A stretch of 62,053 bases of DNA, filler included, from Stramenopiles sp. TOSAG23-6 (lineage: Eukaryota), in NCBI GenBank assembly GCA_900128565.1. It is 23 parts of 23 records of this genome, joined end to end, with 100 filler letters (N's around TTAATTAATTAA, not from the genome) between each part and the next. Parts side by side here need not be neighbours in the genome. Positions count along the whole stretch, not along the records: positions 2,722 to 5,342 come from LT637913.1; 22 more parts are not named here. One strand, given 5' to 3'. The notes beneath the pieces are model-generated. The model saw only the letters and a program-made list of their open reading frames with translations, did not search any database and was not told the DNA's origin. Shown here in pieces: positions 2,776 through 60,213 of the stretch. Each line of letters opens with the position of its first letter. Position 1 is the stretch's first letter. Made by a program: the position numbers and the translations under genes.

Positions 2776-3514
2776 GCGTTTCAGTCGGAGAAGCGACGGA
2801 GACTTAACATCCAAAATAATCTTGCAAATGAACGTAACCTGTTCATACATAACCCAAATAGATGCATTAAACGTCAATTAACCAAAGCAAAAATACGTAA
2901 AAAATTGATGGAGAAATCTGGGTATTCCTTGGAGGCCATGTACGTTGTCCACTTTCTTTCTAAAAATATTTTTTTAAAAATTTTGTACCTAACAAATTTA
3001 AGTTTTTTATTTTTGAAATCCTTGGCCCAAGGCTTCTTAGATTCAGGTTTGTATGCATACTCAAGACATCCAAATTACTTTGCTGAAGTATCACTTTGGT
3101 GGTGTTTATATTTGTACACTCTATCGATGTCTGTTGAAATGCATCAAAGTGATAATGTTTGGGATACACTGTATATTTTCATGATCAATTTAGGAATTTT
3201 TTATTTTTTTATCGAAATTTTTTTTCATACGAAATTTTGTACCTAACAAAATTTTTTTTTTTTTTTGAAATATGTCCCAGCATTACATAATTGATTTTCG
3301 ATTACAAAATGTAGTTTGGTTCAATTGGTCTATATTTGGATGCATTTTATTAACTTTGTTATTTATCGCCCCAGGAGGCTCTATCGACTTTGGTGAGTCT
3401 ATTAGCGCAGCCAAATATGACAAATATAAATTATACCAGAGTAGAGTCAGTAAATTTATTCCTTGGTTTCCATCAACTGAAAATGATTTCACTAAAAAAA
3501 CAAAAAAACATTGA
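2776..3514 (+). CDS. DUF1295 / steroid 5-alpha-reductase-like membrane protein, 3' part (exons 2776-2939, 3024-3170, 3289-3514)
   Basis: GFLDSGLYAYSRHPNYFAEVSLWW and E.IS..KY..Y..YQ.RVSKFIPW motifs. Frame is restored by removing two family introns. Confidence 0.85.
2940..3023 (+). mobile_element. Family intron (GT...TT)
   Basis: GTACGT start, TTTTGTACCTAAC core, removal joins SLEA-M-AQGFLDSG. Confidence 0.7.
3171..3288 (+). mobile_element. Family intron (GT...AT); upstream CAG at 3278-3280 not usable
   Basis: Removal gives WDTL-IDFRLQ. Splicing at the CAG gives CTC ATT ACA TAA (stop). Confidence 0.8.
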
Positions 3515-3753: not shown

Positions 3754-5342
3754 TTAAAAACTCATCGAAAATGTATTGGTATTACTTAGAAGTACACTAT
3801 CAAAATATGAAAGTAATTCTTGTTGATTTCGTGTCTCTACAAGTAGTACATCAATATCTTTTCGACTAGAGATTTCTGCAATAATATGTTTGGGATGATC
3901 ACCAATGATTTTATTATACACAGCATCATACTCAACAACAACAATTTTATTATTTGTCCTTTTAAACGATTGAACAAGATCAGGACGACGAATAAATAGC
4001 AAATAAGGCAGTTTTAAGACATCATATATATCAAATAAATTTTCATAAATAGCTCTTTCTAATAATTTTTCATTATGGATAAAAACTCCGAGCAAATTCG
4101 GATTCGTGTCTGTTGTAGGGTTAGGGTTTCCACAATTAGGGTTAGGGCTATTTTGTACATTTAATAATTCAAATTGTAAATCCTTGTCGCGTAAAACACC
4201 CATTGACATTTCCACATCCATTCCAACACCAAATGATGTATATAATAAATCAATATCATTTCCAATTTTTAATTTTTTTTTTCTATTTGACAAATGATCA
4301 TATAACAATTTCTTATAAAAATCTGTAGGTACAGTTGCAGTAGGGTTAGGGTGAATTGTCCATGTAGAAGTGAAGATAAAATTAAAATTTTCACTCCATT
4401 TACGAAATAAAATTTTACAGTGATGTTTGTTTAGTGGTATATCAATGACAACATGTATATTTTTCTTTGTGCTTTTTTTGGGGTATACATCTGGTGCATT
4501 TTTAGGGTTTTTAGGGTTTTTAGGGTTAGGGTCAGGACTAGGTACATTTTTACTATAAAGTTCAAAAAAATTCAACATTAATTTTTGCATTTTTACAATT
4601 GAATTTAAATCTATTTTAAGTTTTGAAATCTTGTCAGTCTGTATTGTGAATATATATATATACTTTTAAAGTAAAATGATTTTTGTTAGACACAAAATTT
4701 TGAAGAAACAAAATATGAAAAAAAATTAATTTGAAAGAAACAAAATTTGAAAAAAAATTAATTTTCAAGAAACAAAATGTGAAAAAAATTAATTTTGAAA
4801 ATGTACTATTAAAGGTGAATAATGCTTTGTATCACATTTTGTATCAAATGTTGAAAAATTCAAACCTATGAATGAGATATGCGTAGTAGTACCGTTAACA
4901 TTGATTGGTGTTACTCTCATTTTTTTTTCAAATGACACTGTTGAAGTCTCTAATTTTTGTTGAATTTTACATGGAATTAGATTAGGGTTAGGGTTACATG
5001 GAAGCACAACTTCTCCAGGGGTATTATTATTAGTACGAGTTTGTTTTGTAACAACATTCACAGCATTCAACATATTATCATATAAATCTAGACGAATTTT
5101 AAATTGTTTTGATATCCAAGGGTGATGTATTGTAAACAAATATATATAATTGTGAAAAAAACACAAAAAATATCGTTAGGTACGAAGTTTCGTACGAAAA
5201 AAAACTTGGAAAAAACAAATTGAAAAAAAACTATATATATATATATGGATAAAATAATCGTTGGGTACCAAAAAAAATGTTTCAGACAAAAAAAAATAAA
5301 TTTGAAATTGATAATGAAAAAGTACATGATTTTGATTTCCAA
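3754..5342 (-). CDS. Hypothetical protein, 3' part, with PNPN inserts; family introns 5125-5325 (GT-AT) and 4639-4806 (GT-AG)
   Basis: ORFs 4789-5166 and 3754-4590 join in phase 0 across the 4639-4806 intron. No recognised domain. Confidence 0.6.
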
Positions 5343-5442: not shown

Positions 5443-6228
5443 GAATATGTTGATAGAATTATGATTATTCATTTGTTTTATTATTCAGATATTGTATACA
5501 GTATATCTCGTATTTTACATGTATTACAAATATAACTACAACAAAGAATATGTTGATAGAGTTATGATTATTCATTTGGTTTATTATTCAGATATTGTAT
5601 ACATTATATCGCGTATTTTAATTTTGTTAGAAATAAAAGTACAACAAAGAATATGTTGATAGAATGATAATTATTTATTTGGTTTATTATTCAGATATTG
5701 TATACATGATATGCAGTATTTTAATTTTGTTACAAATCTAACTACAACAAAGAATATCTTGATAGAATGATGATTATTCATTTGGTTTATTATTCAGATA
5801 TTGTACACATTATATTGGGTATTTTAGATTTTGCTACAAATAAAACTACAGCAAAGAATATCTTGATAGAATGATGACTATTCATTTGATTTATAATTCA
5901 GATATTGTATACATGATATAACGTATTTTAATTTTGTTACAAATATAACTACAACAAAGAATATCTTGATAGAATAATGATTATTCATTTTATTTATAAT
6001 TCAGATATTGCATACATTATATTGGGTATTTTAGATTTATTACAAACATAACTGCAACAAAGAATATCTTGATAGAATTATGATTATTCATTTTATTTAT
6101 TATTCGGATATTGTATACATTATATCTTGCATTTTAGATTTATTACAAATATAACTACAACGAAGAATATCTTGATAAATTATGATTATTCATTTGGTTT
6201 ATTATTCAGATATTGTATACATGATATG
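5443..6228. repeat. AT-rich tandem repeat, ~103-bp unit, ~7.5 diverged copies
   Basis: GAATAT(G/C)TTGATAGAAT..GATTATTCATTTG..TTATTCAGATATTGTATAC recurs at about 5443, 5546, 5649, 5752, 5856, 5959, 6062 and 6165. Confidence 0.95.
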
Positions 6229-8161: not shown

Positions 8162-8796
8162 ATGACGACAGCAGGAATTGTAGTCACCCCTGCGCCTGCA
8201 ACAGCCAAGGCCATGCGAGGGTATATAATTTTAGCGCCGAGAGCAAGCATACTACCACCTGCTGCAAGTTTTCCCCCTCCTAATGCATAGACCAACCCAG
8301 TCGTGAATCCCGTACCAGCTGGCATATTAAACTGTAAAACATCTAAAACGTCGTTGGCTATAGCACTCAGATCTTCAGAATCTACTTTACCATCCTGATT
8401 ACGGTCGAGAGTACGATTGTAGTCTCGTTCAACAGCACGCCAGTTAACGTTAACATAGTCTAAATACGATAGTCCTTGAAGAAAAACAAAACTAAAACCT
8501 ATACTAGCTGCCGCAAAACGACCAGCTACTTTGAGAGCAAAGCCTGAGCAATAGCCTAGAGTTGATCCAAGCATAATCTGAGATCCCATTGGAACTAAAT
8601 TTGACGTGATAGACTTTGCAATAGCAGTCGGAGTCTGTGCTGCCAGTTCTTCTGCAGCAACTCTTCGCGCTTCAACCTCTGCCAGCACTTCATTCTTTTC
8701 AAGCATTTGTCTTTTCAGCTCTAACAATTCTTTACGCTGTTTATCTATTAGAATATCCGATGCCGATGGACCAAAAAAGAATGAATATATTCCCAT
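8162..8796 (-). CDS. FUN14-family mitochondrial outer-membrane protein (3' truncated)
   Basis: QIMLGSTLGYCSGFALKVAGR..G..F..LQ.LSY.DYVNVNW..VE and NMPAGTGF..G are FUN14 signatures. An EF-hand-like DRNQDGKVD loop is also present. Confidence 0.9.
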
Positions 8797-9170
8797 TGTA
8801 AAGATATTTATACACTCAGAAATTATAATTTGTTTTCTTGGAATTCTCTTTAAGAGTAAAAGAATGAGATTCATCAATTTGCAAGCACAAACACGTGTTT
8901 CTAAATAACATATATAACACACAAACCTGCTGCTTTAGGCTTTGCGGCTTTGTTTTTTTTGATTCAATGAGATTTATTTGATTGGCCATTTTTTNTACAC
9001 GTGTTCCATCAAGTTCTTCTGTTGTGGCATGTGTGTCTACTACGAACTACTAGNTNCTACTACTGTAGTACTAACTACTAGTACAGGTACTCTACGTAGT
9101 TAGTTAGCATCTACTACTACTAGTTTATTAGAATACTATATATTGCTGTCTTAGAATATCTCTACCNTAN

Positions 9171-10772
9171 ATGACTGCGTTACGCATTGCATATGCTTCG
9201 TCGCAGTACCTAGTACGTAAGGCTACGCATATATCAGGTGCTCACCACCGACAAATACGACCACTCACTCTAATTCAAAGTGTNCTTAATTACCATATAA
9301 GNACGGTCACAAATNTACGTCAACANGGAACGCGTCAGAATGGGCATGTGAATCGTTCTGTACAGAACCTTGGCAAACAAAAGAACCAAAAGAACCTTGG
9401 CAAACAAAATGCAGCTCTGGACTTTCAATTGCTGAGTCCAAAAATGGTGAAACAAATTTGGCAGAATTTNTACGAGTCTTTATCCAATGACACTTTAAAA
9501 GCAAAAACCTGCTTCAATGCGATCAAGATTTGTCTTAGCACTGCCGATATGATTCACATAGCATTTGATATTATGCCAAGAAAAGGCTTATTACCAAGGA
9601 GAAGTATTAGAGATTTCATTGCTACTCGATTTCTATTAGAGGGTGATATAAATGGCGCAACGAATTTCCTAAATTCACCTGTCCCAAAGTTCAGTACAAC
9701 TGAATTACAACTTCTTCGTGATACATCAAAAAGTCGTAGAAAAGATGTGTATGACTTATTATATACAAAACCTTTTATTGACAATAGTTTGGGTAGTATA
9801 AAAAATGCAGAAAATGTTGATCATCTAGACGAAAATGCTGATCAACTAGACATTACAAACAAAAATAACAAAAATAACAAAAATAACAAAAATGTATTAA
9901 GCCCACCATCGTTTAGACAAGCTCATCTCAGGCAATGTCGAGAAAAACTTTTAGAGTTTTTCATAAATTGCAATGAACACCAAGCTGCGTGGGATTTTTT
10001 CCATAAATTAGAAAAAAATCAAAAACTTGTAAGTTTTATTTTTTTTTACCGAAAAAAAAAAAAAAAAAAAATCGATTTTTTTTTCATAGTAAATTTTGTA
10101 CCTAACGATTTTTTTGGTAAAAAAATTTTGAAATATTTTTCCAAAATATATACGACGCCTCTCTGTTCATTGATATTACGTTGTTGTTATGGTTGGAATG
10201 ATTATCAATATGTCATTGACCATATTATGAAAAAACATAACCTCAAAATGGATGTTGGTATCTTTTATAACTTAATTACGCTGTTACGAATTGAAGGAAA
10301 CAAACCTGCCGTTCAAGCTTTAATTGACACCGCAATGTATGTTTTATTTTATTTTTTTTTTTTGGTTTAAAAAAAAAAAAAAAAAATGGATTTTTTTTTT
10401 TGTACGAAATTTCGTACCTAACAAATTTTTTAAAAATTTTTTTGGAATATTTTTCCAAAAAACATGCCAGCGAATAATGTAAAACCGACTAAATTAATAT
10501 ATGAAGTTTTAGATCGTGAAGAACCAAGTTTTAGACGAATGGCAACGTCAATCATTAAACAACATGTTTTTTCTAACAACGTGACTCGTACGTTTTCATT
10601 ATTTTTTTTTTTTGGTTTCGTACGAAATTTTGTACCTAATAACAAAAATAACAAAAATATTTTCGTTTTCATTATTTTTTTTTTTACAAAAAAAATTAAA
10701 ATTTTTTTTTTCGTACGAAATTTTGTACCTAATAACAAAAATGTTTTTGATTTTTTTTCACAAAACATGTTT
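9171..10772 (+). CDS. Helical-repeat (PPR-like) protein with a possible mitochondrial presequence; family introns 10029-10151, 10337-10465, 10588-10768
   Basis: PPR-like segments MKKHNLKMDVGIFYNLITLLRIEG and MPANNVKPT; Arg/Ser-rich N-terminus. Confidence 0.6.
10029..10151 (+). mobile_element. Family intron (GT...AT)
   Basis: The same site holds a 107-nt variant (42484-42590) in the second copy of this contig, which delimits the insertion. Confidence 0.85.
10337..10465 (+). mobile_element. Family intron (GT...AT, flanking AT duplication)
   Basis: Removal gives DTA-M-PANNVKP. The next AG (10470) gives ATC GAA TAA. Confidence 0.8.
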
Positions 10773-10992
10773 NNNNNNNNNNNNNNNNNNNNNNNNNNNN
10801 NNNNNNNNNNNNNNNNTTAATTAATTAANNNNNNNNNNNNNNNNNNNNNNNNNNNNNNNNNNNNNNNNNNNNATGTTCTTTTTTTTTTTTTACAAAAAAA
10901 TTCGATTTTTTTTTTTTGGTTTCGTACGAAATTTTGTACCTAACAATTTTTTTTTTGGTAAAAAAATTTTGAAATATTTTTCCAAAAAACAG

Positions 10993-11427
10993 TAACACAA
11001 GATGAAGATGTTCTTGATACATGGTTTTCCTCTTCATTATTACCACTCAGTGCATTAGGATGGCCAAATAATAACCCTAACGCTACTCATTCTAATCGAT
11101 ATCCTCTTGATGTAATGGAAACCGGATGTTTGTTTTCATCATGAATTTTTTTTTTTTTTTCATACGAAATTTCGTACCTAACAAAAAACTTTTTTTTCTA
11201 CATTTTTTTTTTTTTTTTTCACAATACATCGGATATTTTGTTTTTTTGGGTAGCTCGAATGGCAATGATTTGTTCTGAATTAAACCCTAACCCTAACTCT
11301 AATGATGATGAAAATAGAAATCATCCATTTAATCGAATTTTACTTCATCCTATGGTACGAGATCGATCTGGTAGAAAAATGTCAAAAAGTTTAGGAAATG
11401 TGATTGATCCAAATCATGTACGTGTTT

Positions 11428-11466
<39 letters not shown>

Positions 11467-11515
11467 GGCAAAATTAAAATTTTTTTTTTTTTTTTTTTTT
11501 TTTCTAGCAAAAATA

Positions 11516-11546
<31 letters not shown>

Positions 11547-12090
11547 ACTATGAATTTTTGTATTTTATTAATTTTTTGAAATATGTTTGAAAAATATCCT
11601 CTATAGTATATGTCATTAATGGTATATCTCTGCAAACATTACTCTCAAATTTAGAAATTGGGAATTTAAACAAGAATGAAATCAAATTGGCAACAAAAAC
11701 AATGAAAATGGAATTTCCACAAGGCATGTATGTTTTTTTTTTTTTTTTTTTTTTTATTTTTCCAAAATACATTCCTGAGTGTGGAAGTGATGCGTTGAGG
11801 TTTACATTATTAACATATTTACAACAAGGAACTAATATTAACATGGATATTGGTAGAGTTGTAACACACAGGCAATTTGGTAATAAAATATGGCAAGCTA
11901 CAAAATTTGCATTACAACATCGAATTTCTCCTTTAAACCCTAACCCTAATTCAACAATTCCAACAACAGTTGAAATGTTATTTGATGCAAAGAATAATAG
12001 TACTATCAATTTTGATACACTGAAAGATTCAGGGTTTCTACATCAATGGATTTTATCAAGATTAGCATGTATGTTATTTCATCATGAATT

Positions 12091-12129
<39 letters not shown>

Positions 12130-13322
12130 GTAAAAAAAATTTTGTACCTAACAAATTTTTCAAATTTCAATTTTTTTTTTGTATGAAAATTTTGTACCTA
12201 ACAAATTTAAAAAAAAAATAAAAATATTTTTCTACATAAAAGACACTACTGAAACTGTCAATAAAAGTCTTGAAATTTTTGATGTTTCAGCAGCTGCAAA
12301 AAGTATTCATTCTTTTATACAAAATGATTTATGTGGTACTTTTATAGAATGGTCTAAACCAATTTTGAATACAAAAAATAACCCTAACCCTAGTAACCCT
12401 AACCCTAGTTGTGTAATGACGGGTTCGTATGAAATAACTACAACAATTTTACATATTTCTTTAGAAGCATCTTTACGTTTAATGCATCCATTTATGCCTT
12501 TTATTACTGAAGAATTATGGCAAAAATTACCACTTAATAACCCTAACCCTAATTCCAGTAGAAACCCTAACCCTAATTCCAGTAGAAACCCTAACCCTAG
12601 AGAAAATTTGGAATGTTTGAAAAATGTTTCAAAAATAACAAAATCAAATAATGATAAAACGTCTATAATGATGTCAGCGTTTCCAACGACATGCTCTAAC
12701 ACTGCAAAAATATGTGGTACACATTCCATTGATTTGTTATATGATAAAAATGTTGAAACGAAAATGTAAGGTTTTTTTTTTCGTAGTAAATTTTGTACCT
12801 AACAATTTTTTTTTTTTTTTTTTTTTTTTTGACAAAAAAAAATATGTTAAAATTTCATACCTAACAAAAAAAATTTCAAAAAATATTTTTTACTATTACA
12901 TGGAAACATTACTCTCTGTATATAGAGGTGTTCTATCATTACGAAAACAAGCTAGAGATTTAGGTGTTTCAGTAGAAAATACAAAAGATATTGTAGTAGA
13001 TATTACTATAAACCCTAACCCTAGTACAATTTCAAAAAAATCAAAAATTTCAAAAATTTCAAAAAAATCAAAAATTTCAGAAAAATCAAAAATTTCAAAA
13101 AAATCAAACCCGTCTACAAATAATAATAATAATAATAATGATGGAATGGATGAAAAAAAATTGATTCTTTTGTATAAAAAATCTCTACTTGAAAGATGTC
13201 AACTCAATTCTATTGATATACACACGAAATCTGACGTACACACGAAATCTTTACAAAATGAAAAATCTTTGGTGTATGTTATGAATGATTGCTGCACCAT
13301 TCGATTACCCGTTTCTCTTGAT
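10993..13322 (+). CDS. VARS: Valyl-tRNA synthetase, C-terminal half (exons 10993-11127, 11230-11417, 11612-11727, 11773-12068, 12243-12765, 12902-13322)
   Basis: [59 protein letters not shown] and [15 protein letters not shown] motifs. Confidence 0.95.
11128..11229 (+). mobile_element. Family intron (GT...AT) in ValRS
   Basis: Removal restores [15 protein letters not shown] exactly. There is no AG near the junction. Confidence 0.92.
11418..11611 (+). mobile_element. Family intron (GT...AT) in ValRS, poly-T expanded
   Basis: Removal restores [15 protein letters not shown]. The TAG 5 nt upstream would frameshift. Confidence 0.85.
11728..11772 (+). mobile_element. Family intron (GT...AT) in ValRS; interior probably collapsed by assembly
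   Basis: Removal restores [15 protein letters not shown]. Confidence 0.9.
12069..12242 (+). mobile_element. Family intron (GT...AG) in ValRS with duplicated branch core
   Basis: Removal restores WILSRLA-x-TTETVN spacing. The AG sits at the same distance from AAATATTTTT as the AT of other copies. Confidence 0.75.
12766..12901 (+). mobile_element. Family intron (GT...AT) in ValRS
   Basis: Removal joins VETK-M-ETLLSV in frame. Confidence 0.8.
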
Positions 13323-13669
13323 GTACGTTTTATTTTTTTTTTACAGAAAAATTGATTTTTTTTTTTTTTTTTTTTCATACGAAATTTTGTACCTAACAAA
13401 TTTAAGTTTTTTTTGTAAAACTGTAGATTTTTTTTTTTTTTTTTTTTTTTAAATTCAAAAAAAATTTTTTTTTTTTTTTTTNNNNNNNNNNNNNNNNNNN
13501 NNNNNNNNNNNNNNNNNNNNNNNNNTTAATTAATTAANNNNNNNNNNNNNNNNNNNNNNNNNNNNNNNNNNNNNNNNNNNNTTTTGGAAAAATATTTCAA
13601 AAAAAAATCGTTAGGTATAAAATTTCGTACGAAAAAAAATTCGAATTTGAAAAAAAAAATAAAACATAC

Positions 13670-14788
13670 ATTAACGTCAATGCGTCTGTCATCGTCAGTA
13701 TCCACATCTTCAAAAAGATCCCATAATTTATTAAAGTAGTAAATATTTCGTAAAAGAGAGGCAAATTCTCTTTTTTCAACCCAAGAATCTCCATCACCAC
13801 CACCCGCTTTTGACGTAGTCCTTTTGTATGCTCTCATGAGAGCAGGTTTGTTGTTAAACTTTTCAAAACTTGGTACGCTTGTTATCCACTTATCAATTTC
13901 AGCTAAGGAACAGATTCCATTTCCGTTAAAATCAAGTTGTTTCCACATCTTTCGTAAATTATCTTTTGATGATAACGCTTCTTCTAGCTTTTTATCTTCA
14001 ACGGTTCGTGCAGCTATCAGGAATGAAGGAAGTGCAGCTCGACTTTCGTTAGGGTTAGGATTTTCATTATTTTCATTCCCTTGGGAAGTATCATCTTCAA
14101 CTTGATTCTTTGACCAAGCTTGTTTTCGTACTTCAGCAGGTTTATGTCCATTGAGACTTGATGTATGACCATTAAGCTTAGGTTTGTGACCATTCAGAGC
14201 AGGTTTTGATCGTACAGGACCTTTTCTTGGAGGAGGACCTCGAAATCCTTTTCTTTGTCGGAGAGGTGAATTAGTTCTACTCAATTGAGCTGCCTTTCCA
14301 GAAACGTATTTACAGAATTCATCGAACAAAATTTGACCCCCACCATTTGTATCAATTTTGTTAAATTCTTTGTCTGAATTTAAAACTGTCATTTTTACAC
14401 CCAATTTTGTCAAACCTTTATGAAATTCGGTTGGGTCAACTCGCCTATCATCGCCCGTATCAATATCTTCAAAAATATTCCAGAGTTTATTGAAATAGTA
14501 GATATTCCTGAGTAGTGGTACGAATTGTTTCTTTTGAACAAATTCAGTGTTATTTTCTTTCGCGGTAGCCTTGAATGCACGAATTAGAGCAGGTTTATTG
14601 TTGAACTTTTCAAAACCTTGGAAGGTTTGAATGAATTTATCCACTTCTGCCAGAGAACAAATTCCGTTGCCGTTTAAGTCCAATTTCTTCCACATTTCTC
14701 TCAGCTTTGTTTTTGTTTTTAACAGCTTGTCTATTTGGCTATCTTCTATCGATTTGACATTGTCTAAGATAGATCCACCAGCTCCCAT
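13670..14788 (-). CDS. N-myristoylated tandem EF-hand protein resembling flagellar calcium-binding protein (3' truncated at a family intron starting 13669)
   Basis: MGAGGS start. Two copies of W..LD.NGNGICSLAE.DK..KPAL.RA...LRNIYYFNKLW..FED.DT.DDRR. Confidence 0.85.
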
Positions 14789-15103
14789 ACTTTTGTCTTT
14801 TATTAATGAGATAAATATGATAAAAAGATTCTGTTGTAAGCCAGTAAAAGCTGGATACTTACAAAAGATTTGATTTGATGGCTTCTCCTTTGGTAACGTA
14901 ACGTTAAAAACAGATTAGACAGGTTTGTGACATAAAATTTTTTCAGTCAAAAAAACACCTTGAAAATGACACTATAATCATTAATCATTATCAGCTCATT
15001 ATAATAGTTGAAAAAGTAAATATTAACAATTCATTTTATTATTCTCTCCTCTCAACATTTTTTTTAGAAAATAATCCGTACCAAAATTAAACCCATTCAA
15101 TTT

Positions 15104-16097
15104 TCAACATTTCCAAATTCGACAAGTGTTGTCTTTTGATCCAGTAATAACAGTATCCCCCTCATAGTTGAAAGCACATGAAAAAATTTCATCTGTATGT
15201 CCTTCAAGTATTTGAAGACAATCTCCGGTATCAACATCCCAGAGACGCGCAGTTTTATCACTACTTGCCGTCAGGATTTTAGTCCCTTGAGGATTGAACG
15301 CAACTTTTGAAATTTCGCCCTCATGGCCAATTAGGATAGCTTGACAAGCACCAGTCATGGAGTTATAAACTCTTGAAGTTCCATCCGCAGATGCTGTGAC
15401 AAGTTTGCTTCCAGTCTCATTAAAGCAAACATCTAGTATTTCATCATTGTGTCCTCGTAAAGTTTGAACACATCGACCAATATATTGTGAAAATATATAT
15501 TTTTTCTTTCAAGAAAAAAATCGTTAGGTACAAAATTTGGTACGAAAAAAAAAACTTAAAAAATTTGAAATTCAAAGAAAAACGTACGTAGCGACATCCC
15601 AAATTTTGCAAGTTCTGTCTATCGAACCACTGATGCATAAATCACCAGCGAAATTAAATTGTGTTGAAGAAATTTCTCCATGATGTCCGGCTAAGGTATT
15701 AATGCACCTTCCTGTTTTAATATCCCAAACTTTTACGGTATGATCAAAAGATACATAGTGAAAAAATATTTGAAAAAAAAAAAAAAATGTTAACCCTAAC
15801 CCTAATGGAATTTTTTGAAAAAAAAAATTCAAAAAAAAAAAAAAAACCCTAACCCTAATGGTTACATACATCCAGTTATAATATTATCTCCAGTCGTATT
15901 AAAATTCAATGAAACAATTTCTGCTGTATGACCGAGTAGAGTGTGTATTTCCTTCCCAGTTTCCACATCCCATAATTTAGCAGTGTTATCCATCGAACCA
16001 GTAGCTACAATTTTCCCATGAGGATCGAAAGACAAACAAACAATTTCTGTGGCGTGTCCACGAAATGTATAAAAAAGTTTTCCAGTCTCTGAGTCCC
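15104..16097 (-). CDS. DAW1: Dynein assembly factor with WD repeats 1 (ODA16/WDR69), 3' part; family introns 15751-15869 and 15480-15587
   Basis: Consecutive WD40 repeats ending [30 protein letters not shown], the characteristic DAW1 C-terminus. Confidence 0.92.
15480..15587 (-). mobile_element. Family intron (GT...AT) in DAW1
   Basis: Removal restores [17 protein letters not shown]. Confidence 0.9.
15751..15869 (-). mobile_element. Family intron (GT...AT) in DAW1, containing TTAGGG repeats
   Basis: Removal restores [13 protein letters not shown]. Confidence 0.9.
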
Positions 16098-16517
16098 ATG
16101 TATTGTGAAAAAATATTTCAAAAAAAAATTTGAAAATTTGTTAGGTACGAAATTTCGTATGAAAACCAAAAAAAAAAAATTAAATTANNNNNNNNNNNNN
16201 NNNNNNNNNNNNNNNNNNNNNNNNNNNNNNNTTAATTAATTAANNNNNNNNNNNNNNNNNNNNNNNNNNNNNNNNNNNNNNNNNNNNATATATATTTATA
16301 ACTAACAAATACATTATGTACTCAATTATCATACAATACAGGGATTACAACAATGACAAGGTAACAGGCTGTCAATAAAATTAGTTTTGTAATTACAAAC
16401 AAAATAAAAATATTTCACATATGTTTTTTACAATATTATGATGATGTTATGGTTATATAAAAAAAAAAACGAACTTTTTTTTTTTAAATTTTATTTACAA
16501 AACCCTAACTCTTAGAT

Positions 16518-17361
16518 TTACCCTACATAAAAACAATTTGTTGTCGAGGTTAATAAATCACGAGCCTTATCAAAATAATATCCCTCTAATAATAGACGAA
16601 CATCTTCTAATAAAATTCCTTTATTCTCTGGATCGTTGATCATGTATTACGAAAAATATTTCAAAAAAAAAATTACAATTTGTTAGGTACAAAANTTNGT
16701 ACGAAAAAAAAAAANTANTAANCAAAANTATGATGAAAACGTATATATCTTCAAGTAGCTCCAATGTGTCATATCGCATAGATGCTAATTTCATTCCTTG
16801 TAAAATACCTCTTACTTGATTACAGCTAAATCCTCCTTCTATTTTATCCTTAATAACGCGTATGACATCTTTTTGATCAGAAGCTTGTTCGAGATTTTCC
16901 ATAACTTTTTTCAGTTCCTCGGGACAAAGATTTGGTGTCGCTTTGCAACGCCTGTGTTGCCAAAACCATTGGCGTGTTGCATCGACAACCCCTGATTCTA
17001 TTGACCCACAAGAATCAGCTCTACGAATTGTCTTTGCAACAGTACTTGAAAGATGAGGGAGTCCACTGTTCACAAGTGTGCCCATCGTAATCGTTTTGCA
17101 GTTTCCTTGCAATGTAGAACTGACTGAGGTAGGTAAAACTTCCCCATATGTTACTGGAGCGGATAGAACTTGTTGACGTGGGAGGACTGTTTCGTTCGAA
17201 ATAGATGCAGCTGGAGGAAGCATTGGTGGAGGACTATCTAAAAGACACAGCTTATAACGATTTTTCAAAAGTTCAACAGCTTCCTCTAAAGTCTCGTCTG
17301 TCATTCTGTTGAGCATGCCAACTGCCTCGGCGATATGATCAGCACGGGATTTTTGAGACAT
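16518..17361 (-). CDS. Protein with C-terminal DUF4476-like domain; family intron 16642-16744 (AT-start)
   Basis: FSCNQVRGIL..RYDTLELLED-M-INDPENKGIL after splicing resembles DUF4476. Confidence 0.65.
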
Positions 17362-18069
17362 CTTTATACTTTTGACTTGATAAAACTGTTTACCTACTAG
17401 TAATAAATAAAGGAATGAATCGATGAATGAATAAATGTGATTGATTGGAATGAAGACTAATGTGGTGTGTTTTTATACTTCTACCAGTTGTACTTTTTGT
17501 TATATACTAGTATAGCTTAGTACGTGTAGTAGGTCAGAATGTGTGTGGCTTCTCTCGTTCTTCTTCAGATTCTCCAGAATCTGCTACTGACTTTTGCTGT
17601 CTAGCTAGATTTCGTGTTATCAGGTAAATACATAGTTTCTCTACCAAAATTTTGTACCTAAAGGCTAAATCTAAAGGCTAAATTGAAAACTTTTCTTATG
17701 TGAAAAGAGAGTCATTTTTCATATTCGATAAAAATCCAGAAAATCTAAATATTCATCAAATAATGATCATATATATATATATGATTGTTTGATATGATAT
17801 TCTATAATTAATATAGTATAATATAATATAATTATAGTATAAAAAACAAAATATTCATCAAATAAAAATAAAATTCCGGAAAATTTATAGTTTATAAACA
17901 TTCAAAAAATAATAAAATCGTATTTATATGATTGTTATTCACAGTTTATTATACAATTATACAATAATTATAAATAATATAAATATATCTCTTTCATCAA
18001 ATATATATAAATATCCCATCATCATCATTTATAATATAGATATGCGTGACAGGGTTACATGTACAACAT

Positions 18070-20626: not shown

Positions 20627-21540
20627 ATGATTTCAAAAATTATCTTTCTTTTATCGATCTGCTCCGTGTCAGGGTACTTACGTGCCCCGATGACTTCTAT
20701 GAAGACGCCAGAACCTATTCTTGGCGCTACTGGGTGCACAGGAAAGCTTCCTTGCTTACCAGGTATTGATGCAATGGGTATCGGATTCGACGCTGTCACA
20801 GGGACTTCAGATTTGCTTCTCCCAGTTATCGAATTTACGTACAACAGCGACAACGTCTTTGTCAACCCGTTTGATAAAAAATTAACGTACTCCGTTCCAG
20901 ACGAAGCCTCTGTAAGAGTTGCTACTTCGGTAAACAGTGGAGTCACTTCTAAAGCCTTTACAACCACAAGATCCTTCGAGAACAACCAAAGTCTGAGTGT
21001 TGGTTTATCCGGTGAATACGGCGAATTCTCTGGCAGCATCAATGCAAAGTGGTCACGTGATCATTTACATGAAACTCAAAGGTATGGTAGTGTTGTTCAA
21101 TCTTCACTTGATGTTTCATTGTACGAAGTTGCCTTACAACCTTCTCCTTTACTAAGGAAATCCGCCGCTTTCGATAAAATGGTGAAATTGCTACCTCGTT
21201 CATATGATAAAGCAAAGTACGACGATTTCTTAGTGAATTTTGGTACGCACTACGTCTCGGCTGCCACTTTTGGTGGTTCGGGTAGAATGCTATCTGCTGT
21301 TGATACTTGCTACACAAAAGAAAAAACTTCATCTGAGATTGAAGTCGATGTATGTTTTATTGTTTTTCAAAATCGTTTTTTTTTCATACGAACATTTGTA
21401 CCTAACAAATTTTTTTAGATTTTTTTTTGAAATATTTTTCCAAAACACATGCGTCGGCACATTTTGCAACAGTTGCAAACCTAACTTCCTCTTATAAAGG
21501 ATCTACGAATACCACTGACACAGAATTCATGAAGAATAGT
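20627..21540 (+). CDS. Secreted MACPF-domain (perforin-like) protein, 3' truncated; family intron 21350-21450, next intron starts 21541
   Basis: Signal peptide, LPGID.MG.GFDAVTG and Y..F...FGTHYV..ATFGG MACPF signature. Confidence 0.9.
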
Positions 21541-27771: not shown

Positions 27772-29291
27772 ATGGAAAGTAACGCGTTGTACCAGGAAAG
27801 ACTTTCGTCTTACCAACGAAAATTATTGAGACGCCGCGTTTTCAATAACACTTTGCAGAAAAGAGTAGGTTTGACAAATAGTGATATCGAAAAATATGAG
27901 AAAAATCGGGCTACCAAAAACAACAAATACCTTGGCAATGGAAAATTAGGTTTTATGTATACTCTTCGAGAAGACCTTTATGCAGAAGATACTAGAGTCA
28001 CTGATACGAAGAATAGATGGTACGGAAATTCTATGCCATTGAGTAGTCATAAGAAAAAGACAGATGTGGAAAGGTTGGTGCATGCCTTAGAAAAGACTCC
28101 TCAATGTCTATCTTTATCGCGAGAAATTCAAATTCAATCAATGTTGCGATCTCTGACTTATGCTGGAATATCGGGGAAAAACTACGAATTGGCGTTTAAA
28201 AGATTTGACCGAGATGGCGATAGCTTAATAGGATTTGACGATTTTGTTGTGACTTTTCGTAAATTTATTCGGAAAAAAGTAAGTGAAGAAGAATTAGCAT
28301 CATATTTCTGTATTATGGATGACACTGAAGATGGATATATAGATTTAAATGAATTTACAAAAGCTTTGGAGGAAGATTTAGTTGTAAATGGGTTTGTACG
28401 TTTTTTTTTTCTCAATTTCAATTGCTTCTTTTTCATAGAAAATTCCGTACTTATACATTTTTTTTCTAAAAATATTTTTTCCCACTACATTCAGACCGCA
28501 GACGAGCAACTCCATGTACGCTTCAAAATTATTTAGACGTGATGAGCCTCATCCATCAAAAAGAAATCGAAAATAAACGGTATGAAGAGGCATCCACTCG
28601 AAGTGAAGAAGGAAATCCAGCGAGTGAGATTTTGAATAATCCATCGACAGATTCAATCGGAAACAAAACTAAAAATTCAAAACGTGATTTTCGCAATTTC
28701 AATATTATGCAACTTATAGCCTTTTATACAGCCTGTGAGAGGAAATACGCAAATGCAGAATTCACTTCAGATTTACTCAATCGTTGGAAGTTTCGCGAGC
28801 AAGATCTATGTAACAAACTATGTGAGAAATACAACAGAAAAATTCATCTATTGACAACAACTGATGAGGAGAGTGCAAACATTAATTTGAAAACAGGAGG
28901 TAGCACAGTACAAGAAACATCATATAAAAAAGACGAATTACAAAAAAGAATGAAACAGAAATCGATTGCATTTCAAAAAAGTACACACAACTTTCTAAAA
29001 AAGAAAAATATACCCACAATAATAGATCGTGCTCGATCAAGATTAAGAGGATTAACGTATGTCGATACTTCTGGACAAAATTATGCACTAGCATTCAGAC
29101 GTTTAGATAAGGATAAAGATGGCAATATTAGCTTTCAAGATTTTGAGTCGTCAGCAAAACGAACTTTAGGAATGAAAATATCCGTGGAAGAAATGCAGCG
29201 ATTATTCAAGGCAATTGATGCTGATAACAATGGGGTCATTGCCTTTGACGAATTTGTAGAGTTCATTCAAAATGAAGTTCGAATAACTTAG
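27772..29291 (+). CDS. EF-hand protein with duplicated EF-hand pair; family intron 28396-28490 (GT...AT)
   Basis: LR.LTY...SG.NY.LAF.R.D.D.DG repeated twice. The two ORFs join in phase 0. Confidence 0.85.
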
Positions 29292-34187: not shown

Positions 34188-35054
34188 ATGGATTACTTTC
34201 AAGTTATACCAATTTCAAATCAGCAAATAAGCAATGGTGTGATGTTTCCTTTGGCTCTGGCTCCTCTTCCTGGTTCAGATAAATCTTTTGACTCACTTGT
34301 GAAAGCTATCAAAAAGCACCGTAAGCACATCTTGACCACTACGTTTCAGCACGGTGCTCTCCTACTTCGAGGGTGGACAAATGATTCTCCTGAGGGTTTT
34401 GCCGATGTTAGTGAAGCGCTTAATTTAGAAAAGTATCCGTATGTCGGTGGAGCTGCACCTCGCACGAATGTAGTTCGAGACGTCGTTTTTACCACGAATG
34501 AATCACCACCTGAAAAGCCAATACCCTTCCATCATGAAATTTCCCAAGTACCAAACCCACCTTCATACATTATGTTTTATTGTAACGTTGAACCAAATCA
34601 GGGAGGTCATACTCCTATTATTCAATCAGCTGAAGTTTGCGATTATTTGTTTCGAAAGTACCCTGAGTTTGCAAAAGAGCTAGAAAGCAAAGGTGTAAAA
34701 TATATTAGGGTTATGCCAAAAGAGACAGATAATGATTCTCCAATCGGACGCTCGTGGAAAGAAACATTTCAATGTGAAACTAAGGTTGATGCAGAAAGAG
34801 CAATGTCTAAAATTGGAAGCACATGGGAATGGTTATCTAATGGTGATGTTCGTGTTACATCTGCTGTAGTACCAGCATTGTACGTTGTCCACTTTTACTT
34901 TTGTTTTTTTTTTTCATACGAAATTTTGTACCTAACTGTAAAACCTAAAAAATCAAATTTTTGAAATATTTTCCTAAAATACTTACGTATAGATAAACGA
35001 AGTGGTCGTAAAATGTTTTTTAACTCAGTTGTTGCAGCATACACTGGATGGATT
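34188..35054 (+). CDS. TauD/clavaminate synthase-like Fe(II)/2OG dioxygenase; family intron 34880-34984 (GT...TT)
   Basis: HGALLLRG, YVGGAAPR, VFTTNESPP..IPFHHE, GG.TP and GRSWK.TF motifs. Splicing restores VPA-L-RIDKRSGRKMFFNS. Confidence 0.9.
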
Positions 35055-37920: not shown

Positions 37921-38591
37921 CGTGGTACATTAGGTTTTGGTGATGATTTTGCTCAAGGTAATATCGGCATGCAAGGCATTGCTGATATTGATGATATTCT
38001 TACAGGTATCAATTACTTAAAACATGAAAAATATATATCTTGTAGATCTCGAATAGGCGTCTTTGGTGGAAGTTATGGTGGATATCTTACTTTACGTTTA
38101 TTAAGTAAAACTACTGAGTTTAGTGCTGGAATTTCAGAATACGGATTTATTCATAATCGTTGGATGACATTAGAAGGAGGAGATCCGACATGGGAAAGTG
38201 AATATGTATGTTTTTTTTTTTTCAATATCATTTTTTTTTCATACGAAATTTTGTACCTAACGATTGTTTTTTGAAATATTTTTCCAAAATACATATTGGC
38301 CAAGAGAATGTATGGCCATTAAATAATACACTCCAGAGAAGTGATATTTTCAATGATTTAGTAAATATTAAGACTCCATGTTTATTTATGCATGGAGAAA
38401 AAGATGATATATGCACACCATCACAATCACTTGTAGCGTTTAGAGTTTTGAAATCAAATAAGATTCCCACTGGACTTATTATCTACCCAGATGAAAAACA
38501 TGGATTTTCTAAACCATGTAATAGACAAGATCGAGATAGACGAATGTTATTCTGGTTCTTGAAGTTTATGCCTGTCAACTCAATAAAATAA
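37921..38591 (+). CDS. S9-family serine peptidase, C-terminal part; family intron 38206-38294 (GT...AT)
   Basis: GGSYGG nucleophile, HGEKDD and YPDEKHGF catalytic motifs. Confidence 0.92.
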
Positions 38592-48826: not shown

Positions 48827-48999
48827 AAGGTGGTCCACGTCTTTTTCTAGTTCCTTTACGTTTATGAATTGTTGTTAGATGGCTTGCATACGACATATTT
48901 TCCATTGATTTGTTTGACATTTTCGTTTTATGGAAATTCCACCAATGGAGAAAACAATCCTATATTGTGAATTTTTTTTTTCCAACTTTTTTTCCCTAT

Positions 49000-49032
<33 letters not shown>

Positions 49033-50058
49033 AAATGTCTTAGGTACAAAATTTACTATGAAATATTTTTTGGAAAAAAAAAAAAAAAAAAAAAAACGTA
49101 CAACGACTCCTTCTTTTGTATTTGTTTGCATATTAATTAACCCTCGTAATGAAGGACAGCGACTGATTAAACCTCTTAATTTCCACCCTATAGTGTGAAA
49201 CAAAGACGAAATTTCACCCAAAAAAAAATGTTAGGTACAATGTATGGTACAATTTATGTTTAAAAAAAAAAAAAAAATTCTATGAAAATTTTCATACAAA
49301 ATTTTTTTACCAAAAAAAAAAAAAATAAATTTGAAATTCATCAATCAAAACGTACATGGATATTGAATCAACTCTTCACGCGAAGGACATGTATCACAGA
49401 GTTGAGTTACATTGAGATTTGGTCCAACATGAAGAAAATCACAATGTGTGCGACATTTTTGACAACGAGCTAAACCACCAGAAAATGGATCAACAAATTC
49501 ACAAATTCGACATTTTGGACAGATTTCCCTGCATAATTCACAAAATGATGTTCCTTCAAGCTTTGGTATATATAAATATTGTCGAAGTAAGATACTACTT
49601 ACCTTAGAAGCAGCACTAAAATCATGAATTTGAAAAAGTTTCATAAATTCTTTAGTCAAAACTCGAAGTTGTTCCCGTTGCCAGTGACTGAGTTCAATTT
49701 CAGTCTTTACATTGTGGTTTCCACGTAAGCTTGCTGCAGCGGCATCTGTGCCAACAGACCATTTGTCAGGACAAATATGTCCCCACTTTGGTTGTAAACA
49801 CCTCGAGCAAATTTCAGCTTTATGTTGTTGTGTGAAACCTGCTAAACGACCTCTCTTTACGGTACGATAACTACTTGAAGCTGCAACAGATTTACGCTTT
49901 TTACTAGTTGAACGAGTTTTTCTCGTAGATTTTGTCTTTGCTTTTGTTTTTGTATCTTTTTTAGATTGCGAAGAAGTGTCAGGAGGTGTTGAAAATACTG
50001 GTCTTTCCGACATTAATTCAGAGTCTTGTGACGCCGCCATTTGTGAAATCCAATCCAT
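48827..50058 (-). CDS. Cys-rich nuclear-type hypothetical protein; family introns 49188-49355 and 48960-49101 (both GT...AG)
   Basis: C..C...K.GH.C knuckle and further CxxC pairs. Frame is continuous after splicing. Confidence 0.6.
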
Positions 50059-52845: not shown

Positions 52846-53878
52846 TTTTTTTAGGCAAAAAATTTCTTATAAAAAAAAAAACATTCGAAATAAATTAGGA
52901 AAACATACATGGGTGCCTTTTTTACCTTTTTCATCTTTTTCAAACGTTTATTATTTGAAAATTGTAAAGAATGCAACATATGAATAGCTGTAGCTAATGT
53001 TGCATTTTTATGAGCATGTAAACGCTTATTAAAACGAAGTGTATGAAGCATAGAACTCTTTTCATTTGACGTTTGAAATTGATTAATTACATCTTCATAT
53101 AGAATTGCTGCATCATAAAAATACTATGAAAAAATATTAAAAAAATATTTTGTTTTCGTTAGGTACAAAATTTCGTACGAAAAAAAAACTTTTGTAAAAA
53201 ATTAAAAATGATGAAAACGTATAATTCGCCTTTTTCATGTAATAAAGTAGCTAAATTATGCATCGTATCAATATGAGTAGGTGCAATATCCAAAGCTCTT
53301 CTCAATAAATTCTCTGCACCTTGCATCGAATATTTTTTTAGTGAAATTGCATGTGCATTCAACACATTAGCATTACACGAAATATCTTTACATAGAAAGA
53401 GACATTGTTCAAAACTATATTCTGCTTCAACATTTCTATTAAAATGGAAGAGTAGTATACTATGTATTTTGGGAAAATATTTTTTTTTTTTTGTTTAAAA
53501 AAAAAAGTTTTTTGTTAGGTACAAAATTTCGTATGAAAAATAAATAAATTTAAATTTAAATTTAAAATTGATCCTGAGAAAACATATATGTTGTATGATT
53601 GCATCTATATTTGAAGAATCATTTTGAATTGCTTTTTCAAAAAAATCAAATGCAGTTTCAAAATTAGCATTATTTTGATATAATATACCAAGATTTGTAA
53701 GAATGGAACTTTGTGTTTTTCGTGTTTTTCGTGTTTTTCGTGTTTTTTGTTCAAGTTGCAATGCTGTTTGAAATGCAATTTCAGCTTCTTTGAAAGAAAT
53801 GTCTGATATGAGAGGTTCATCGCTAAGAGCAACACCAAAATTTAATAAATGTTTTGATAACTCTCTTTGTTTGGGAGC
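51634..53878 (-). CDS. TPR-repeat SAM-dependent methyltransferase; family introns 53462-53587, 53119-53222, 52727-52908
   Basis: TPR helices, AP-I-SYIQKLFDDFS..FD, LDLGCGTGL, GIDISPKM, DLVVAADVLVYFGD and GRF.HS..YI motifs. Confidence 0.88.
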
Positions 53879-54402: not shown

Positions 54403-56640
54403 CTACACATCTATGATATCTCTACCACTACTAGTGCTTGAACTACTTTCAGAACTTTCAGATACACTCTCTAATGTATTGGCGTAACGCGGTCTGTAAC
54501 TAGAGTGTAACAGACTTGTTCTGTATGGACTTCTCGATTGGATTCTACCACCTGGTGGAAGTCCTGTATCCATGCTACCTCCACTACTACCTTGACTTGC
54601 CGGTGCCGAATTCCATTTTGTCCTAGATTCTCGAACTGCGAGAAATCGACGCAGTCTATTGTACCCAGTACGACTACGACTGGCGTGTGTTGAATCATCA
54701 TCGTTCAAGTATTCATTAGATAAAGCCGAGGCAGCCGCAACTTCTGCACGACGACGAGCTGATATAAGACTATCACTTGCAATTTTCATTTGGCTTGAGT
54801 GTAACCTTCTAATCGCTGGTGTCATCCAGGCTCTTCGACATCGACGATGACTCTCACGAGCATGCAGCACTGTTAAATCTTTGCGAGTGACAATACCAGC
54901 GACATCACCATCCAAATCAAGAACACATAAGTGTCTTAATTCAAGACTGCGAAAGATTTTAAATGTTCTTGTAAGGGATGCACGTTTATTCACAGTAAAT
55001 GGCATACCCATATATGGAGACAGATCGACAAACAACTCCCGCTCTTCAGGAGATAATGACAACTCTTTCACATTTACATATCTTGGATACAAGGTCTCAA
55101 ATGCTTCCCATGGAAGTGCCTCTGCAACTGACTTTGAATTTAACCCACGAAGAGATTGTTGCAACCATTCTGTATTTCCACGCGCCATGATTTCTTCTAG
55201 TGGTCTCAAGGTTTGTGCTTTATATTGATTGCACAACAGGACGCATAATTGCTTACGCTTAATTATACCTGTAAGATGTCTCGCCATTGTATCATCAATA
55301 ACGTTTGAATCACTTTTGATTGCATACGTAGAATACGCAGATGTCGATGCGTTAAATTGAAAATGTTGATTATCAGACGAATTTGTGTTCTTTGTTGAAA
55401 ATGACTTTTGAGTTCCCTTTCTTGAAGAAGGTGATCTTGGTGATCCTAAACCACCCTCTGGATCATGACCAATTCTTGGACGGTAAATTACTACAGGAAA
55501 CCCACTGTGTTGTGTACTTTTCAGCATATCAAGTATAGTACCAGCTTTCTCAACTGGTTGAAGCACTTTTGGTTGACAACTCATTACATTTTCAACGTGT
55601 AATCTTCGAAACCATTTTGGTGGGTCCCACTCTAACAGAGGAATCCCTCGTTCTTCAATATGCATATCATATAAACCTTCATTGAAATAATTTCCCACCC
55701 AACGTGCAGTTATAAAAGTGACTAAGAGAGGAAGACCATAATTAATGTCTCCACACGATTCAAGCATAATGACAGTGAGTGAGAGAACCATACGANNNNN
55801 NNNNNNNNNNNNNNNNNNNNNNNCCAAGTACAGCAGCTGCGCCTATCAGTGCACAATTACCGTAATGTAAATATTGCCAATTGTTTGCCGCACTACCCAT
55901 CAAACTATCTACAATTTGTCCACACATCTTTCCATACGCTGAGCCTGCTACAATAAGAGGCATAAACACACCGGCAGGAACTTGTAGGCCAAGTATTGTG
56001 AAAAATATTTAAAAAGAAAATTGTTAGGTATGGAATTTAGAATCAAGGACAAAAAACAAAAAAAGATTTGAAATTTATCATGAAACATACAAATGTATAA
56101 CATGTTGTGAAGAAATAAAAGACGAAAAATGTGATGACTGGTAAATATTGGGTTGTTAACAAAACTGTTGGCACCCAACCACCGCCTGAAACTAAATTTT
56201 CTATAGAGCTCATCCCAGGTGCGAGCAAAAATCGCACAAGTTGTGAATTTGTAGCTGAGTTGCACGGTGGAATGACCACCACAGGTGTAATCATTCCAGT
56301 TGTGTTGGTACTATTATTGAATGTAATACTATTATTGAAATATGTGTTACTACTACTACTATCCTGTGTGTAACTTGGAAGATCTTTCACCTTACAATTT
56401 ATAAATGTATATGGAAAGAAAAATCCTCCTATACTCATGAGAAAAGCCATACATGCTGCTTCTAACAACATTTTGAATGGTTTTCCTACGATATATTTTA
56501 AGCGAAATTTTGTGATTCTACGGTTCATTGAAACAAAGGCAGCACCTAAAATTCCCCCACCTATACCTATAAGAATAAATATAGGCAATTCCCAATATGT
56601 GTATGCGTATTGCCATTGAGGATGATTACCGGAAGTACCA
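54403..56640 (-). CDS. CLC chloride channel/antiporter (CLC-6/7-like) with CBS domains; family intron 55991-56090 (GT...TT)
   Basis: GIGGGILGA.F, TF-GLQVPAGVFMP, RM..SLTVI..E, GN.FNEGLYD and CBS motifs HSGFPVV and LRHLCV..GIVTRKDL. Confidence 0.93.
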
Positions 56641-60197: not shown

Positions 60198-60213
60198 GTA
60201 CGTTTTCATTATG

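Follow-up and report, generated by a model that had tools for sequence, protein, structure and literature searches.

A putative transposon-derived intron family with GTAYGT 5' ends and predominantly AT or TT 3' ends in the uncultured marine stramenopile TOSAG23-6

Few signals of eukaryotic genes are as constant as the terminal AG of introns. Repeated introns of the introner type have reportedly been described by Gozashti et al. for Micromonas, Aureococcus, dinoflagellates and others, and Henriet et al. in 2019 are said to have traced introns of Fritillaria borealis to miniature inverted-repeat transposable elements (MITEs). Here we describe a family of about 37 copies of a ~100-nt intron, which splits unrelated open reading frames (ORFs) in 62,053 nt of DNA from Stramenopiles sp. 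TOSAG23-6 (assembly GCA_900128565.1); this whole stretch is called the window below. The starting point was one copy in a DUF1295 gene, for which an earlier reading of the sequence, here the original prediction, had proposed that the 3' splice site is placed by a conserved hairpin and that nearby AGs are skipped. The family carries spliceosome-like 5' and branch signals, is absent from two poly(A) RNA contigs that span copies of it, and has a mostly non-AG 3' junction. With a probability of roughly 0.6, we favour the interpretation that it is a MITE-derived introner removed by a U2-type spliceosome, whose relaxed 3' site is anchored on the element terminus.

Several described systems come close, and they are compared here on the basis of the accessible parts of the cited sources. 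Known introners likewise create introns by insertion, are sense-oriented and derive splice sites from element ends plus target duplication, but are described with canonical splice sites; a large survey dropped mainly non-canonical families lacking transcript support, so that a family like the present one would have been missed (PMC12130899). Among the non-canonical introns of Amoebophrya are introners that bear inverted as well as direct repeats (Farhat et al. 2021, PMC7789003), and the two systems share repeated introns in a marine protist, terminal inverted repeats, short direct repeats at the borders, non-GT-AG ends and a MITE-like build without transposase. In Amoebophrya both borders vary with no dominant dinucleotide, the direct repeats measure 3-5 nt and U1 was undetected (PMC7789003), whereas the family here has a strict GTAYGT, keeps CTAAC and a U-run, deviates only at the 3' end (AT/TT) and has a 2-nt repeat. 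The non-conventional introns of euglenids and hemistasiid diplonemids share non-AG ends, short direct repeats and perhaps end pairing with our family, but their borders are not conserved, they are rich in GC and without U1 complementarity, and the machinery that removes them is unknown (PMC12621601). The variable borders without U1 complementarity of the euglenid and Amoebophrya type were not found in the present family, where GTAYGT is conserved. In the U12-type introns of Physarum polycephalum, splice signals also lie in inverted repeats and a 2-bp duplication restores the frame, and GT-AT ends account for 17% of its non-canonical introns (Larue, Elias, Roy; bioRxiv 10.1101/2020.10.12.336362). 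The 5' sites there are RTATCTTT, the branch lies 9-12 nt from the 3' site and the target is TA, in contrast to the U2-like signals, the branch motif 34-54 nt away and the AT or TT repeat of our family. In Fritillaria borealis a U2-type spliceosome handles mostly non-GT/AG introns and a changed U2AF is proposed for non-AG ends, yet this is a metazoan with non-canonical 5' ends as well and no single GTAYGT family (bioRxiv 10.1101/2025.08.15.670264). Animal GT-AT introns can combine these ends with U2-type signals that are optimal in all other respects, as in DGCR2, where the intron is shared by human and mouse, or belong to U12 subtypes, but each is an isolated case in a set of hundreds of thousands of introns (Sheth et al. 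2006, PMC1557818), whereas here GT-AT is the main form of the window's main family. In none of the compared systems does one family pair a mainly AT/TT 3' end with a branch site and a strict U2-type 5' site. Literature searches, with supplements outside their scope, returned no description of the present family, and the accessible text of the single-cell stramenopile genome paper (PMC5778133) does not mention unusual introns.

The catalogue comprises 37 3' ends, with both ends present for 26 copies. Every catalogued copy is sense-oriented and lies between ORFs, and the host genes include DUF1295, valyl-tRNA synthetase (ValRS), CLC channel, WD40, MACPF and TauD-like genes; many similar intron copies thus occur in unrelated genes of one genome, as is characteristic of introners. 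The short consensus reads (A)T/GTAYGTTTT … TTTYGTACCTAAC … T-run … YCAMAATAYAT/, with slashes for the borders, and full copies are laid out as (A)T/GTAYGTTTT..(AAATTCGAATTT)..T-run..CRTACGAAATTTYGTACCTAAC..T-run..(GAAATATTTTT)YCAMAATAYAT/. The core TTGTACCTAAC and its flanks are repeated on both strands of the window, where AAATATTTTT occurs 44 times against 4.4 expected and a hairpin-like pattern has 52 matches against 0.35 expected, overlapping and both-strand matches being counted. At the 5' end (n=34) we found G+1 in 31, T+2 in 33, A+3 in 33, Y+4 in 32, G+5 in 32 and T+6 in 32 copies, preceded by T at exon position -1 in 32 of 34. The 3' end (n=36) shows A-7 in 36, A-4 in 35, Y-3 in 35, A-2 in 30 and T-1 in 30 copies, with a U-run from -16 to -12. 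A CTAAC branch-like motif has its A 34-54 nt before the junction in 32 of 35 ends, upstream as originally predicted, though over a slightly wider range than the 30-45 nt given then. The GTRNGT 5' site, YTRAY branch and pyrimidine tract of U2-type introns are all present, and the terminal AG is found at only 5 of 37 ends. An exact 21-mer of the core had no match in metagenome contigs, and the 16-mer AAATTTYGTACCTAAC had 117 single matches there, which were judged to be chance because similarity to a copy never passes ~29 nt; the metagenome contigs thus supplied no related sequences for the covariation analysis.

The final dinucleotide over the 37 ends is AT in 25, TT in 5, AG in 5, and AA and GT in one each, and the junction directly follows the conserved terminal block of the element. 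With the donor fixed at /GTAYGT, a junction placed after this block was in frame in 21 of 26 copies before the ends were aligned, and in 20 of 22 informative non-redundant copies afterwards (p = 3e-8 against 1/3). Left out of the 22 were 42484, an allele of 10029, two copies whose upstream ORF is short (54102 and 5325) and one whose downstream ORF is short (26869). Two misfits were resolved by the end alignment, namely 53222 (TAGTATTT) and 49101 (CACAATATAG, with AG at the equivalent aligned position). Ten AGs stand no more than 10 nt from an informative junction, and the distance is a multiple of 3 for none of them; with the donor fixed, use of the AG acceptor at 3280, 10470, 11606 or 28494 would break the frame in each case, while the AG at 26975 sits at a contig end, outside the frame test. 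Among the 27 ends that hold AAATATTT, the junction lies 17 nt from its centre in 21 (equal to 11 nt past AAATATTTTT), 16 nt in 4, and 15 and 28 nt in one each. Two claims of the original prediction were borne out by these counts: that the junction of typical copies falls about 11 nt past AAATATTTTT whatever the dinucleotide, and that the neighbouring AGs are unproductive. Because a joint shift of both sites keeps the frame, hidden canonical pairs were sought. No in-frame, stop-free GT/GC-AG alternative exists within 30 nt of either border in 14 of 23 non-AG copies, for which such pairs are ruled out, and RNA or homologues rule them out for two more. A 3' junction at a fixed position of the element, whatever its final dinucleotide, with neighbouring AGs that are not productive sites, is supported. 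A rule of the first YAT after the branch was also considered and was ruled out by eye, as typical copies already have a TAT, inside AAATATTT, ahead of the site that is used.

Public runs matching the window comprise small DNA runs, seawater metagenomes and poly(A) seawater metatranscriptomes; RNA contigs were placed on the ValRS contig only, and both intron-bridging contigs come from a single study. Poly(A) contig X7 record 13 matches 11664-11719 and 11770-11898, and the five letters that separate the two matches are unassigned, which amounts to a skip of exactly 45 nt; the intron is 11728-11772 or shifted by at most 3 nt (CAT stands on both sides), with no AG involved. RNA contig X8 record 22 shows an unambiguous joint of 12068 to 12243, where the 5' cut falls right before GTATGT and the acceptor is an AG. 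Removal from RNA, as expected of introners, is thus seen for two copies. RNA record X9-29 enters intron 11418 by 8 nt and is uninformative on splicing, and the listed rows of DNA run X3 hold repeated intron parts only, uninformative on excision at the DNA level.

Protein homologues support the junctions 11127 to 11230, 11727 to 11773 and that of the CLC intron 55991-56090, and less securely 11417 to 11612. The ValRS homologues P0007 and P0010 share a 14-residue stretch across 11128-11229, DPxx[IV]IxGI across 11418-11611 and FPxG-IPECGxDALRF across 11728-11772, ungapped in each case; since they carry exactly DPxx[IV]I, the length of intron 11418-11611 is fixed. CLC homologue P0001 aligns without a gap across the ACTT-ending intron 55991-56090, scoring 111 against 96 and 94 for 3-nt shifts, and its tblastn match begins at 55990. 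The borders of copy 15587 hold no repeat, so that the register can be read: translation yields WDVATG in register 0 but WDVAIG in register -2, and among 1185 W[DN]xxXG motifs from 120 WD40 homologues, X is T in 670, S in 297 and I in 6. Registers -2 (AT..AC) and -1 (TG..CA) are ruled out by this WD motif and the RNA joint of 12068 to 12243. In the DUF1295 gene, whose upstream exon matches the Pfam family, the junction sits in a lineage-specific insert; the profile (21 homologues) therefore cannot pick among the in-frame variants, which score alike at 151.6-152.4 bits.

The ends GTAT...ATAC form inverted repeats, complementary at +1/-3 in 23 of 26 copies, at +2/-4 in 24 and at +3/-5 in 20, so that the terminal inverted repeats of introners are present. 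Moreover, the last two exon bases equal the last two intron bases as AT/AT in 14 and TT/TT in 3 of 26 rows, where AT is self-complementary and several copies mismatch. An exon ending in tt precedes 3 of 3 TT-ending introns vs 2 of 19 AT-ending ones (Fisher p = 0.0065). This match at the borders looks like a 2-bp target-site duplication, and removal of the element with one duplication copy would restore the original reading frame exactly.

We envisage a short mobile MITE-like introner of 45 to ~200 nt that would have inserted in sense orientation into many genes. As its sequence shows, the left end provides the near-perfect U2-type 5' splice site GTAYGT and the middle the branch site YGTACCTAAC followed by a U-run, and the right end is the inverted repeat of the left, ...CAMAATAC, followed by two bases that usually copy the exon dinucleotide (AT, sometimes TT). 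Removal would take place at the RNA level, from /GT to two bases past ATAC, as seen in a few copies and presumed for the others. The 3' cut is probably set not by AG choice but by the terminal block (T-run, YCAMAATAY and 2 nt; effectively YAT, YTT or YAG), and the U2-type spliceosome would tolerate U as the last base in its second step. The AU-rich hairpin upstream probably represents ancestral element sequence rather than a ruler. A transposon origin, a U2-type spliceosome and recognition of the 3'-terminal block rather than of a structure are what we infer from these features.

Hairpin-assisted 3' site choice is described for some yeast introns. The original prediction invoked such a hairpin, TTTTGGAAA-TATT-TTTCCAAAA, as a ruler or as a means to shorten the branch-point distance, with the 3' cut at a fixed offset. 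That 21 of the 27 motif-holding ends have their junction 17 nt from the centre of the palindrome would agree with this, as would the strong stems of a few copies, namely end 10466 (-12.4 kcal/mol) and end 54194 (-11.4). Most stems, however, are no better than shuffles. Folding of the last 36 nt of 36 copies at 20 °C, with 200 dinucleotide shuffles of each for comparison, gave a mean z of -0.99, with z below -2 in 9 of 36 and no structure at all in two copies; typical copies reach ~-4 kcal/mol at z values of -0.2 to -0.8, and the DUF1295 copy, without the 3' arm of the stem (GAAATATGTCCCAGC), has a minimum free energy (MFE) of -2.0 kcal/mol and a z of +0.25. Across the 37 aligned ends, pairs form in 64.3% of the cells of the proposed 9-bp stem vs 62.0 ± 1.2% after shuffling (19/500 reach the observed value; controls with a slid partner, 55-60%). 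Its covariation score is 0.114 vs 0.090 shuffled (30/500 reach it) and rises to 0.123 with the partner slid by -2, and RNAalifold returns 0 pairs on the aligned 3' ends. A conserved structure between branch point and 3' site was found neither by folding nor by covariation nor by RNAalifold. In addition, the stem-less copies 11728-11772 (RNA), 11128-11229 and 55991-56090 (homologues) use the same terminal site, and the four frame- or homologue-supported 16-nt ends (26068, 32171, 16641 and 55990) lack a T or have an altered block, so that there it is the terminal block that the junction follows. Copy 12069 uses an AG at 17 nt and passes an ACAT at 12 nt, as a ruler would have it, but a preference for an available AG accounts for this equally well. 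The hairpin ruler is therefore an improbable explanation of the 3' cut. A pairing of the intron ends, (AU)GUAU with AUAC(AU), the second idea of the original prediction, could alternatively join the exons and set both cuts, with or without the spliceosome, as has been proposed for non-canonical introns of euglenids, hemistasiids and Amoebophrya. The inverted repeats that had suggested this pairing are real: the ends are complementary in most copies, the predicted helix, including two exon bases, exceeds a probability of 0.85 in 7 of 22 copies, among them the RNA-supported mini-intron, and isolated double changes occur (C+4/G-6 twice, A+4/T-6 once, A+1/T-3 once). Yet the double changes are not significant and too few for covariation, in the other 15 of the 22, the homologue-supported 55991-56090 among them, the helix probability stays under 0.06, and C+4 stands opposite A-6 in 7 copies; conserved GTAYGT and CTAAC rather suggest ordinary 5' and branch recognition, and we consider end pairing unlikely.

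Removal by a transformed minor (U12-like) spliceosome appears highly improbable to us. The GTAT start and CCTAAC branch do resemble RTATCCTT and TCCTTAAC, U12 introns with GT-AT ends are known as a rare subtype (PMC1557818; bioRxiv 10.1101/2020.10.12.336362), and U12-type introns have been multiplied by a transposon in Physarum (bioRxiv 10.1101/2020.10.12.336362). However, G+5 and T+6 are each found in 32 of 34 copies where U12-type introns have CC, so that RTATCCTT is not matched; the motif is TACCTAAC at 34-54 nt instead of TCCTTAAC near the 3' end, the U-run is long, and an Rfam scan, confined to the window, matched no family. We find it scarcely credible that the elements are cut from DNA like the internal eliminated sequences of ciliates, or that the non-AG junctions are artefacts of pseudogenes, assembly errors or hidden sites. 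Precise loss of the element with one duplicated dinucleotide would resemble the behaviour of a transposase, but the elements are present in assembled DNA and in DNA runs, their spliceosomal signals are sense-only, and poly(A) RNA lacks them. As for artefacts, a canonical in-frame alternative is present in 9 of 23 non-AG copies, but 14 have none, and the long flanking ORFs speak against pseudogenes.

Several points weigh against the MITE-derived introner with U2-type splicing that we prefer. The frame test fixes intron length modulo 3 only, and most junctions rest on frame plus family alignment; the canonical alternatives just mentioned include 28400..28494 and, for the DUF1295 copy, 3157..3280 in the same frame. 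The RNA evidence is thin, as two contigs bridge introns, one of them at a non-AG junction (11727 to 11773, the only such junction with RNA support), and contigs cannot give the frequency of AG usage. Two copies do not fit: 25944 needs a 1-nt shift, and in 12069 the ACAT is passed over and an AG 5 nt further on is used. Reading 11418-11611 as AT..AG at -5 leaves the length unchanged and yields DPIY, by eye nearer to DPLY/DPLF of the homologues than DPNH. Besides, several copies do not have the duplication intact (ct, ac, gt or tc before AT), and neither an empty site nor an autonomous element was found in the 62-kb window.

Table 1. Selected copies of the intron family and related features; positions count along the window, and slashes mark intron borders.
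Feature	Position	Strand	Support and remarks
Intron of the DUF1295 gene singled out by the original prediction, 118 nt, GTATAT...CATTACAT	3171..3288	+	Frame: acceptor 3289 ± 3n only; AG acceptor 3281 out of frame
Branch-site-like core TTGTACCTAAC of the DUF1295 copy	3237..3247	+	A of CTAAC 43 nt before junction
ValRS intron GTTTGT...CACAATACAT	11128..11229	+	P0007/P0010 ungapped; MFE of last 36 nt 0.0; no hairpin, no nearby AG
Degenerate ValRS intron GTACGT...TATAGTATAT	11418..11611	+	Frame and homologue length; AG 5 nt upstream of junction
ValRS 45-nt mini-copy GTATGT-T(n)-ATTTTTCCAAAATACAT	11728..11772	+	RNA and homologues; no CTAAC core, no 5' stem arm
Two-core copy, GT-AG, ending CTACATAAAAG	12069..12242	+	RNA contig X8 record 22
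CLC-channel intron GTATGT...CACAATACTT, TT end	55991..56090	-	Ungapped P0001 alignment
WD40-gene intron ac/GTACGT...CAATATAT/t	15480..15587	-	Borders without repeat; WD motif
Typical full copy, best stem TTTGGAAA-TATT-TTTCCAAA	54102..54193	+	MFE -11.4, z -3.4
Typical copy at/GTATGT...CCAAAAAACAT/g	10337..10465	+	In frame; AG 5 nt downstream out of frame
Typical copy, MACPF-domain gene	21350..21450	+	Frame
Typical copy	38206..38294	+	Frame
Degenerate copy ending CCCACTACAT	28396..28490	+	Frame; canonical GT..AG at +4 shift equal in length
Copy with AG at terminal position (CACAATATAG)	48960..49101	-	Frame and end alignment
Copy with A at +1 (ATACGT), end TAGTATTT, exon end tt	53119..53222	-	Frame and end alignment
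Copy ending AAATACTT, exon end tt	34880..34984	+	Frame and end alignment

Individual copies depart from the consensus in several ways. The branch-site module is tandemly duplicated within the introns at 60198-60380 (+), 12069-12242, 10588-10768, 12766-12901 and 5125-5325 (-); three 47-nt units of it stand at 60215-60356, and the other duplicated introns hold two cores. A first base other than G (ATACGT, ATATGT) or a GGACGT start is seen at 16744 (-), at the near-identical 57230 (-), at 53222 (-), 53587 (-) and 32067 (+), and in the inverted duplicate at ~30109 (-). Copy 32067 is bordered by a direct repeat of 6-7 nt, (T)GGACGT, so that its borders are ambiguous over 8 registers. A partial element, consisting of the core and an A-rich tail, lies at 22040-22200 (+) past the end of a minus-strand ORF and is flanked by a direct repeat of ~38 nt (CAGGACTCAAATATTCGAAATTGAATGTTTTAGGACTT). 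The copy at 4638-4760 (-), ending CACAATACAG, stands upstream of the first ATG of ORF 3754-4665 and is probably an intron of the 5'-untranslated region or an intergenic copy.

The window is made up of 23 pieces of ~2.6 kb each in descending order of length, joined by 22 linkers N44-TTAATTAATTAA-N44 at 2622-2721 and 21 further positions; periodic repeats of 2.7 kb are apparent because the N runs recur at about that spacing. Single Ns mark positions at which near-identical pieces disagree. The base composition is AT-rich (23-37% GC per 2 kb), and the standard genetic code keeps long ORFs open. Near-identical pairs of contigs, 8162-10772 with 40617-43211, 16288-18893 with 56774-59363, and 29814-30486, inverted, with 31744-32416, are 99-100% alike and probably allelic or redundantly assembled; indels within the intron account for most of the difference between the copies at 10029 and 42484 (123 vs 107 nt).

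Other features of the window were also recorded. Tandem repeats occupy 5443-6227 (103-nt unit, seven times) and 50632-51291 (75-nt unit, seven to eight times), the latter encoding the recurring protein motif YASDDLKNDRDIVLAAVQ. Telomere-like (CCCTAA)2 occurs at 20 positions within coding exons, e.g. 11283, 11936, 12379-12598, 4128-4532 (-) and 14059 (-), on the sense strand of genes on either strand, and reads as in-frame Asn-Pro-Asn-Pro in long ORFs at 15 of the 20. In ValRS these motifs fall in insertions relative to the homologues, and the one at 11936 is kept in one RNA contig. An EF-hand protein with the FCaBP-type EF-hand domain PF22592 (E = 1.7e-12) is encoded at 13586-14914 (-), and the 3' end of its gene is interrupted by a family intron. 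The FCaBP-type family is named after a kinetoplastid flagellar protein. A marine diplonemid as source was considered on account of this domain, but the nearest named protein, P0005, bears the EukProt label GSMAST32..., a hint at a marine stramenopile of the MAST-3 group; CLC homologues were uninformative on the taxon.

Since the family introns end in AT or TT at a fixed spot, standard gene finders would misread their host genes. The public ValRS model P0005, essentially contig 10873-12766, forces GT-AG borders; it loses DILFFWVA and IPE and gains false residues. P0005 also begins with translated intron and removes MLFDAKNNS and a 14-residue stretch, both of which resemble ordinary coding sequence. 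Low gene counts and apparent pseudogenes in such single-cell genomes may partly be artefacts of this kind.

We put forward tentatively, at a little short of even odds, the broader notion that an uncultured marine protist lineage has as its main intron class a transposon family spliced GT...AT/TT, in which the cut follows the element terminus and a 2-bp duplication and not AG. If this holds true, the spliceosome of this lineage, or an added factor, would perform the second step without the near-universal terminal G, and splicing would be systematically wrong in the published gene sets of such organisms. An AT/TT end combined with textbook 5' and branch signals would isolate the question of how the site of the second step is found, with dozens of natural variants at hand, and the family would illustrate how a transposon end together with a target duplication may dictate the border of an intron.

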